64,000 bases of DNA from GCF_054482595.1 NZ_CM137008.1, one strand, 5' to 3'; positions 15,308-17,984 are shown, counted from the stretch's first letter. Numbers and translations are program-made. The notes: generated by a model not told the origin, from the sequence alone.

Positions 15308-15325
15308 ATCCTACACCTGTAAGAA
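15308..15325 (+). promoter_or_regulatory. Candidate EvgA box (ATCCTACA-CC-TGTAAGAA) upstream of ydeP
   Basis: 18-bp inverted repeat matching the EvgA consensus TTCYTACA-N2-TGTARGAA; coordinates approx. Confidence 0.55.
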
Positions 15326-15568
15326 AATCCGCGCACAATTGAAGCCAGAGTCTTATTTTTTATATTAAAAAATATGTTAATTTAAACACTATGAGAGATG
15401 ATGCTTACCTTATCGTATTTAATCTATTGTTTAACGATAATAGATTAAAAATAGAAAGAGAGTAGTCCCCTACTCTTATATATCCATGTTGGCGATAATC
15501 CCTTTGTATGTACTGTGCATCATCGCTATTACAAATCCTAATAATTCATTTCCACACAGGATAAGTAG

Positions 15569-17848
15569 ATGAAGATAAAAATTGAATCCTACCAGGGAGC
15601 TGCCGGTGGTTGGGGTGCTGTTAAATCCGTAGCGAATGCAGTACGTAAGCAGATGGATATACGCCAGGATGTTATTGCCATGTTTGACATGAATAAGCCA
15701 GAGGGCTTTGACTGTCCGGGTTGTGCATGGCCAGATCCTAAGCACAGTGCGTCATTCGACATTTGTGAAAACGGCGCAAAAGCAATCGCCTGGGAAGTCA
15801 CGGATAAGCAGGTAAACGCCTCTTTCTTTGCTGAGAATACGGTTCAATCATTACTTACCTGGGGAGACCACGAGCTTGAGGCTGCGGGGCGACTCACTCA
15901 GCCTTTGAAATATGATGCCGTCAGCGACTGTTACAAGCCATTAAGCTGGCAACAAGCTTTCGATGAAATTGGCGCACGCCTTCAAAGCTATAGTGATCCC
16001 AATCAGGTTGAATTCTATACTTCGGGCCGCACTTCCAATGAGGCTGCCTTTCTTTATCAGCTTTTTGCCCGTGAATACGGGAGCAATAACTTTCCCGACT
16101 GCTCCAACATGTGCCATGAACCGACAAGCGTGGGTTTGGCAGCGAGTATCGGTGTAGGTAAAGGGACCGTGTTGCTGGAAGACTTTGAGAAGTGCGATTT
16201 AGTCATTTGCATTGGGCATAACCCTGGTACAAACCACCCTCGCATGCTGACTTCGTTGCGCGCTTTAGTGAAACGGGGAGCGAAAATGATCGCCATCAAT
16301 CCTCTACAGGAACGTGGCCTGGAGCGATTTACCGCACCGCAAAACCCGTTTGAAATGCTGACGAACTCTGAGACTCAGTTGGCCAGTGCCTACTACAACG
16401 TGCGCATTGGTGGCGATATGGCGTTGCTCAAGGGGATGATGCGCCTGTTAATTGAGCGCGATGATGCTGCAAGTGCCGCAGGTCGGCCCTCATTGCTGGA
16501 TGACGAATTTATTCAAACGCATACCGTCGGCTTTGACGAGCTACGCCGTGACGTTCTCAATTCCGAGTGGAAAGATATCGAACGTATTTCTGGACTAAGT
16601 CAGACACAAATCGCCGAACTGGCTGATGCATATGCCGCTGCCGAACGCACCATTATCTGTTACGGAATGGGGATCACTCAGCACGAACATGGTACCCAGA
16701 ATGTACAGCAACTGGTCAATCTGCTGTTGATGAAAGGTAACATTGGCAAGCCTGGTGCGGGTATCTGCCCACTACGTGGCCACTCTAATGTACAGGGCGA
16801 CCGAACCGTCGGTATCACCGAGAAACCGTCTGCAGAGTTTCTGGCTCGCCTGGGTGAGCGCTATGGCTTCACTCCACCTCAAGCACCTGGACATGCTGCA
16901 ATTGCCAGCATGCAAGCAATATGTTCAGGGCAGGCTCGAGCATTGATCTGCATGGGGGGCAACTTTGCACTGGCAATGCCAGATCGGGAAGCGAGCGCTG
17001 TACCGTTAACGCAATTAGATCTGGCGGTACACGTAGCCACTAAGCTTAACCGCTCTCATCTGCTGACCGCACGGCATAGCTATATTCTGCCGGTTCTGGG
17101 ACGTAGCGAGATTGACATGCAAAAAAGCGGTGCGCAGGCGGTAACCGTTGAGGATTCAATGTCGATGATTCATGCCTCGCGTGGCGTGTTAAAACCCGCC
17201 GGTGTAATGCTGAAATCAGAGTGTGCAGTGGTCGCGGGAATCGCGCAGGCAGCACTACCCCAGAGCGTGGTAGCCTGGGAGTATCTGGTGGAAGATTATG
17301 ATCGCATTCGCAATGACATTGAAGCTGTGCTGCCAGAGTTCGCCGATTATAACCAGCGCATCCGACATCCTGGTGGTTTTCACCTGATAAACGCTGCTGC
17401 TGAAAGGCGCTGGATGACTCAGTCAGGTAAGGCTAATTTCATTACCAGCAAAGGGCTGTTAGAAGATCCCTCTTCAGCGTTTAACAGTAAGCTGGTCATG
17501 GCGACAGTACGCAGCCACGATCAGTACAACACGACGATTTATGGTATGGATGATCGCTATCGAGGGGTATTCGGTCAACGAGATGTGGTCTTTATGAGTG
17601 CTAAACAAGCTAAAATTTGCCGTGTAAAAAACGGCGAAAGAGTTAATCTTATTGCGCTTACGCCAGACGGTAAGCGCAGCTCACGCCGCATGGATAGATT
17701 AAAAGTGGTCATTTACCCTATGGCTGACCGCTCACTGGTGACCTATTTTCCAGAATCGAATCACATGCTAACACTTGATAACCACGATCCATTAAGTGGC
17801 ATTCCTGGCTATAAAAGTATTCCGGTTGAATTAGAACCATCAAATTAA
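15569..17848 (+). CDS. ydeP: Molybdopterin oxidoreductase of the formate-dehydrogenase-like family, acid-resistance protein (759 aa)
   Basis: Full-length ORF with N-terminal Cys cluster (CPGC) and molybdopterin-oxidoreductase domains. Confidence 0.9.
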
Positions 17849-17966
17849 TGCCTCTTCTCATTTCTTCTGCTGTCATCCGCACAGCAGAAGAATACCTCAT
17901 TGACTATTATCGCGCAATTTGCTCACATGGATTAAATTAAACTACATACTATAAGATATAAACTTC

Positions 17967-17984
17967 TGCCTACAGCTGTAAGAA
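17967..17984 (+). promoter_or_regulatory. Candidate EvgA box (TGCCTACA-GC-TGTAAGAA) upstream of safA-ydeO
   Basis: Same 18-bp inverted repeat as upstream of ydeP, including a shared flanking AAnTCCGC; coordinates approx. Confidence 0.55.

Follow-up and report, generated by a model that had tools for sequence, protein, structure and literature searches.

BvgA is the closest relative of the response regulator EvgA. Both EvgA and BvgA, the latter known from the Bordetella promoters Pfha, Pfim3 and Pptx, belong to the NarL-type class of response regulators. At Pfha, a high-affinity inverted heptad is found furthest upstream and BvgA dimers are placed every 22 bp on one face of the DNA; the −35 is poor, and the promoter-proximal BvgA site abuts it or is co-centric with it (PMC7250471). 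In the EvgA regulon, an EvgA site is present at every directly regulated gene, and activated EvgA raises the activity of the ydeP promoter from very low to high (PMC4283999). Inverted repeats at yfdX and yfdWUVE are bound by EvgA (PMC3720670). EvgA also activates the safA-ydeO operon (PMC9496106; PMC5706723; bioRxiv 10.64898/2026.05.06.723403), and direct EvgA binding at the K-12 safA-ydeO promoter is stated in a passage of the review PMC9496106 that cites Itou 2009. Some papers treat ydeP-safA-ydeO as one operon. The safA-ydeO and evgAS genes are limited to E. coli/Shigella, and EvgS in many natural E. coli is unresponsive to low pH (PMC5706723), so use of the boxes in the strain studied here is not guaranteed.

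The window analyzed here, a stretch of 64,000 nucleotides, belongs to an E. coli chromosome. The annotated gene order is ydeS, ydeR, ydeQ, ydeP, safA, ydeO, ydeN, all on the plus strand (Table 1), and annotated E. coli genomes match at 100% identity, which confirms the gene names. Several complete genomes, that of strain Santai among them, match positions 15000–19200 at 100% identity, and of the 5426 complete E. coli genomes 5394 have this stretch. The two boxes of the window are the orthologues of the published K-12 ydeP and safA (b1500) EvgA boxes. The K-12 ydeP and safA spacers have the same length as those of the window and are 98.5% identical to them. The ydeP box begins with AGCCTACA in K-12; its counterpart in the window, ATCCTACA, is nearer to the consensus by one base. 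To be noted, upstream of ydeS the window has the fimbrial usher gene as two overlapping ORFs in different frames (10375–11280 and 11255–13201), while it is annotated as intact, with 2652 nt, in Santai. This looks like a frameshift in the F9-type (ydeQRST) fimbrial operon.

Table 1. Coordinates of genes, EvgA boxes and promoter elements in the window.
Feature	Coordinates	Strand	Basis or remark
EvgA box, ydeP promoter: ATCCTACACCTGTAAGAA = ATCCTACA-CC-TGTAAGAA	15308..15325	+	weight matrix rank 1, 22.3 bits
EvgA box, safA-ydeO promoter: TGCCTACAGCTGTAAGAA = TGCCTACA-GC-TGTAAGAA	17967..17984	+	weight matrix rank 2, 20.9 bits
ydeP copy of ~100-bp promoter module (box and core promoter)	15308..15407	+	ungapped homology
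safA copy of promoter module	17967..18066	+	79% conserved in L011
CA-N-AA element CACAA, ydeP promoter	15334..15338	+	anchored comparison
CA-N-AA counterpart CAGTA, safA promoter	17993..17997	+	
nTCYTATT element GTCTTATT, ydeP promoter	15350..15357	+	best 7-column window
nTCYTATT element GTCCTATT, safA promoter	18009..18016	+	
Extended -10 of PydeP, TGtTAATTT	15375..15383	+	predicted; start near 15390
Extended -10 of PsafA, TGtTATATT	18034..18042	+	predicted; start near 18049
Alternative ydeP sigma-70 promoter, TTGAAG-16-TATATT	15339..15366	+	consensus scan
ydeP, 759 aa, acid-resistance oxidoreductase	15569..17848	+	EvgA target gene 1
safA, 65 aa, connector activating PhoQ	18096..18293	+	target operon gene 1
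ydeO, 253 aa, AraC-type activator of gadE	18367..19128	+	target operon gene 2

The ydeP box lies in the ydeQ-ydeP spacer, 243 nt upstream of the ydeP ATG, and the safA box lies in the ydeP-safA spacer, 111 nt upstream of the safA ATG. They are alike at 15 of 18 positions, and their 16-mer core differs at one spacer base only. The initial annotation had described near-identical EvgA palindromes at both promoters, and on realignment the motif is present at both coordinates. The inverted repeats are there, but the palindromes are imperfect, with 12 (ydeP) and 14 (safA) of the 18 positions being self-complementary. The EvgA consensus, reportedly defined by Masuda & Church (2003) and by Itou et al. 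(2009), is TTCYTACA-N2-TGTARGAA; this string is backed here by an enrichment test at known EvgA targets. The proposed agreement with the published consensus holds, with one mismatch per box, and a matrix built independently of the two boxes picks exactly these two. The other K-12 EvgA boxes (emrK/evgA, frc, two at yfdX, and yegR) form the same 18-bp inverted repeat as those of ydeP and safA, with (T/C)GTA(A/G)GA(A/T/C) as the half nearest the activated gene in all of them. In the distal half-site of the ydeP and safA boxes, the two outer bases do not follow the consensus; this half-site carries CC and non-T outer bases, while the other K-12 boxes have TC. The sequence 3′ of the 18-mers is A-(A/C)-TCCGC, namely AATCCGC and ACTCCGC. 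Of the AA-N-TCCGC that had been described after the box, the TCCGC is thus present, but the full string requires the final A of the box to be included. Since the other K-12 boxes (emrK, frc, yfdX and yegR) lack TCCGC, it is rejected as a part of the EvgA motif; only the boxes of the ydeP/safA pair are followed by TCCGC and TGAAG. Both 18-mers are real, correctly located and interpreted, and already published knowledge.

Very probably, both 18-bp imperfect palindromes are high-affinity sites for EvgA~P dimers, driving ydeP and safA-ydeO. Our own evidence consists of the presence of the sites, their matrix match and their conservation; EvgA dependence, binding and H-NS are taken from the literature. 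In eight E. coli strains with 93–100% identity in the spacer, SNPs are found in the ydeP box only at position 2 and at the spacer positions 9 and 10, and in the safA box only at positions 1 and 10. These variable positions (1, 2, 9 and 10) are outer bases and the unspecified N2 spacer, and CCTACA and TGTAAGAA are unchanged across all eight strains. The specified box bases are under purifying selection. Of the 5426 complete E. coli genomes, 5307 carry a 40-bp segment with the ydeP box at ≥95% identity, and 4941 carry the corresponding segment with the safA box. Both boxes are also kept, as ATCCTACGCCTGTAAGAA and CGCCTACAGTTGTAAGAA with one half-site change added, in L011, an E. coli-labelled contig with only 85% identity across ydeP-safA-ydeO, where the DNA preceding each box can hardly be aligned.

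Outside Escherichia the boxes are not found. Among 100,044 species (one genome each), the extended pattern CCTACA-N2-TGTAAGAAANTCCGC is confined to three contigs, all E. coli-like; the box co-occurs with evgAS, whose restriction to E. coli is taken from PMC5706723. One of the three, a 13-kb contig of a 'Candidatus Nanosynbacter' MAG (JARKOR010000108.1), has both boxes and 98.4% identity to the region, and almost certainly is E. coli DNA that was mis-binned. Outside Escherichia, the YdeP proteins that come nearest among the matches listed are from Edwardsiella tarda (87% amino acid identity) and Hafnia paralvei (71%), and Providencia is also represented. In Edwardsiella and Hafnia, ydeP has a different gene context without safA-ydeO, and no EvgA box is found upstream of it (best 2.6 and 5.4 bits, respectively). 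Both boxes are Escherichia-specific.

The likeness of the two promoters reaches well past the box. Aligned without gaps from box base 1, the two module copies are identical at 64 of 100 positions, or at 49 of 82 once the box is left aside. The null, taken from other registers and from AT-rich controls, is 22.6 ± 3.9 and at most 44, and none of 100,000 shuffles reaches the observed value. The similarity breaks off abruptly where the box begins on its 5′ side, upstream of which identity is at background, about 2 in 10; the TCCGC after the box is part of this homology of about 100 bp, which starts exactly at the box. Because the homology amounts to 64 of 100 positions and upstream identity is only background, the ydeP and safA promoters look like paralogous copies of one module of about 100 bp, with the box as its 5′ edge. 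Such extended homology would also be expected if the boxes were alike only through the duplicated segment, with the palindrome being a passenger and not a working site. We consider this highly improbable: the same palindrome is found at unrelated EvgA targets, the box is the best conserved part of the module with SNPs avoiding its specified bases, and according to the literature both promoters depend on EvgA, which binds directly at safA-ydeO.

Within the module, TGtTAATTT of ydeP aligns with TGtTATATT of safA, and their counterparts in L011 are TGcTAATTT and TGcTATATT. The predicted core promoter is an extended −10 (TGnTAATTT / TGnTATATT) about 45 bp downstream of the box, which would place the box centre near −73.5 from the predicted starts. 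If this extended −10 is the true one, the −35 positions read from the sequence would be ATTTTT (ydeP) and ATTTCC (safA). The supplements of Cappable-seq and SMRT-Cappable-seq have no entries for these genes or coordinates. TTGAAG-16-TATATT is not favoured as the shared core, its −10 not being conserved in L011 (TTTATT) or at safA (TCTTTT). It is retained as an alternative for ydeP because its hexamers are listed for this gene in an RNA polymerase (RpoD holoenzyme) SELEX table (PMC3946193).

Short matches are also seen between other promoters of the regulon. The yegR promoter of K-12 (about 8330–8345 in L003, minus strand) and the ydeP promoter (15379–15397) have an exact 12-mer in common, ATTTAAACACTA, followed by GAGAG. 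This 12-mer lies around the predicted −10 and start of ydeP, and its distance from the box differs by about 6 bp between the two promoters. Likewise, CTCTCTGATT is common to the frc promoter and the yfdX-proximal one. The promoters of the EvgA regulon may be related by descent.

Several other repeats are observed around the two boxes. A perfect 9-bp inverted repeat, TGCGCGGAT / ATCCGCGCA (15278–15286 and 15327–15335), flanks the ydeP box asymmetrically, and the TCCGC 3′ of this box is its right arm. The left arm lies in a small conserved island, TCCATT..GAAAA.TGCGCGGAT, which survives in L011 with the spacing shifted by 12 bp; at safA no counterpart of this repeat is found. A hairpin with a perfect 12-bp stem and a 7-nt loop, TTCTTCTGCTGT-CATCCGC-ACAGCAGAAGAA (17862–17892), starts 14 nt past the ydeP stop codon and has no T-run after it. 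In L011 the stem is identical and the loop, ACGGATG, is nearly reverse-complementary to this one, as would be seen after an inversion of the hairpin. This hairpin may separate ydeP from safA transcription. With a start near 15390, the ydeP leader would have a length of about 180 nt. It contains two conserved inverted repeats, TTTAATCTATT/AATAGATTAAA (15418–15449) and AGAGTAG-TCCC-CTACTCT (15459–15476), and could be a site of post-transcriptional control. No Rfam family is found in 15000–19600 at E≤1.

The initial annotation had further called the intergenic regions AT-rich, H-NS-silenced and horizontally acquired. AT-richness is evident, with a GC content of 32.7% for the ydeQ-ydeP spacer and 36.4% for the ydeP-safA spacer, compared with 47.9% for the window, of which only 2.7% of 300-bp segments have ≤33% GC. 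As to H-NS, its in-vitro binding to promoter fragments of ydeP and ydeO is known from the literature (PMC2984483); the RpoD SELEX table carries an 'HNS' flag for the ydeP-ydeQ spacer (PMC3946193). Horizontal acquisition agrees with the composition of safA (37.4% GC) and ydeO (39.5%), but ydeP itself is ordinary (50.3%), and for this gene only the patchy distribution is suggestive. Among the matches listed, the closest YdeP is that of Edwardsiella and none is from Salmonella, Citrobacter or Klebsiella, which suggests that ydeP itself was laterally acquired despite its ordinary GC. In Edwardsiella tarda, ydeP (5001–7280) is located between the moa operon/Bax1-I gene and nrdAB.

The binding of H-NS at these regions would also fit a reading in which the palindromes are bound mainly by another regulator acting at the two promoters, such as PhoP, YdeO, RcsB/GadE or another LuxR-type protein. 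PhoP and YdeO are reported to reduce safA promoter activity (bioRxiv 10.64898/2026.05.06.723403). The boxes, however, match the EvgA-regulon motif found next to evgAS itself, and the box is absent where EvgA is absent (PMC5706723; Edwardsiella, Hafnia). They are also unlike the direct repeat of PhoP. A different main regulator is thus very unlikely.

Simple pattern counts are weak tests of such boxes, since at the tolerances used at least two matches are found in 7 of 100 and 16 of 100 shuffles. The motif was therefore derived independently from other EvgA targets. The consensus matches four times in the 16-kb emrKY-evgAS-yfdXWUVE locus of K-12 (one match in the emrK/evgA spacer, one before frc and two before yfdX), a count of at least four being reached in 0 of 200 shuffles, and it matches once upstream of K-12 yegR. 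A symmetrised weight matrix was built from these five K-12 sites only, with ydeP and safA excluded, and was scanned over the whole 64-kb window with 200 block shuffles as the control. It ranks the ydeP and safA boxes first and second, within the range of the training sites' own scores (18.4–25.2 bits). There is no third EvgA box in the window, the next best site (11.0 bits) being below the mean shuffle maximum of 13.5. Chance matches in AT-rich spacers, for which the not very rare loose pattern counts could be cited, are effectively refuted by the matrix scan and extremely improbable: the two scores are about 10 bits above the rest of the 64 kb, no shuffle reaches even the lower of them (0/200), and both boxes lie upstream of the two known EvgA targets.

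With both palindromes taken as EvgA~P dimer sites, the regulation can be described as follows. In mild acid, EvgS would phosphorylate EvgA, a NarL/FixJ-type response regulator, which as EvgA~P dimer would bind each box upstream of a weak, AT-rich and H-NS-bound sigma-70 promoter. EvgA~P would thereby turn on two transcription units, ydeP and safA-ydeO, after which SafA would pass the signal to PhoQ/PhoP and YdeO to gadE. The suggested fit to the cascade from EvgAS via SafA to PhoQP and via YdeO to GadE is in agreement with the gene identities and the literature.

A comparison of six EvgA-activated promoters, aligned by their box in gene orientation, shows two elements common to all six in fixed register, CA-N-AA (box coordinates 27–31) and nTCYTATT (43–50). 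The other K-12 EvgA promoters have CA-N-AA and TCYTATT in the same register as ydeP and safA. When each apparent paralogue pair is represented by a single promoter, register randomisation gives p = 0.0004–0.0016; without ydeP or safA it gives p = 0.001–0.012. The nTCYTATT element is unchanged in the eight strains and in L011. The EvgA half-site has TCYTA as its core, and this sequence is found here 42 bp, or four helical turns, downstream of the distal half-site. These shared in-register elements hint at a multi-contact architecture similar to that of BvgA.

The half-site-like TCYTA of ydeP and safA lies over the predicted −35 region, comparable to the proximal BvgA site, and the spacing in the EvgA promoters would be 21 bp, compared with 22 bp for BvgA. 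No second or third palindrome is recognisable in the ydeP and safA promoters, and in the search for additional EvgA dimer sites between the primary site and the −35 no secondary matrix match exceeds 7.6 bits. A second full palindrome 21–22 bp downstream was considered and rejected, with 8–9 of the 16 specified bases (by eye) and no matrix match. By analogy with BvgA, a multi-contact mechanism of EvgA is possible. We propose only tentatively, and with more doubt than confidence, that PydeP and PsafA are copies of one EvgA cassette and that a rigid architecture is at the same time common to all EvgA-activated promoters, consisting of the palindrome, CA-N-AA at +9 to +13 after it, TCYTA over the −35, and the extended −10 some 53 bp past the box. 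The cassette homology and the in-register elements may be modest additions to what is known, their novelty being uncertain.

The two boxes are the entry point of the E. coli EvgAS acid-resistance cascade, leading to ydeP, PhoQ/PhoP and GadE. Their confirmation in a non-K-12 strain brings nothing new in principle, and only the promoter architecture might matter. If the copied cassette and the rigid architecture are both true, the regulon would have grown in Escherichia by copying of the cassette before new genes, ydeP included, and EvgA, like BvgA, would activate via several contacts or dimers phased on one face of the DNA, not via one upstream dimer. Multi-site EvgA binding, if true, would explain the assembly of a young, species-restricted regulon, and it would also explain promoters that are tightly off without EvgA~P.
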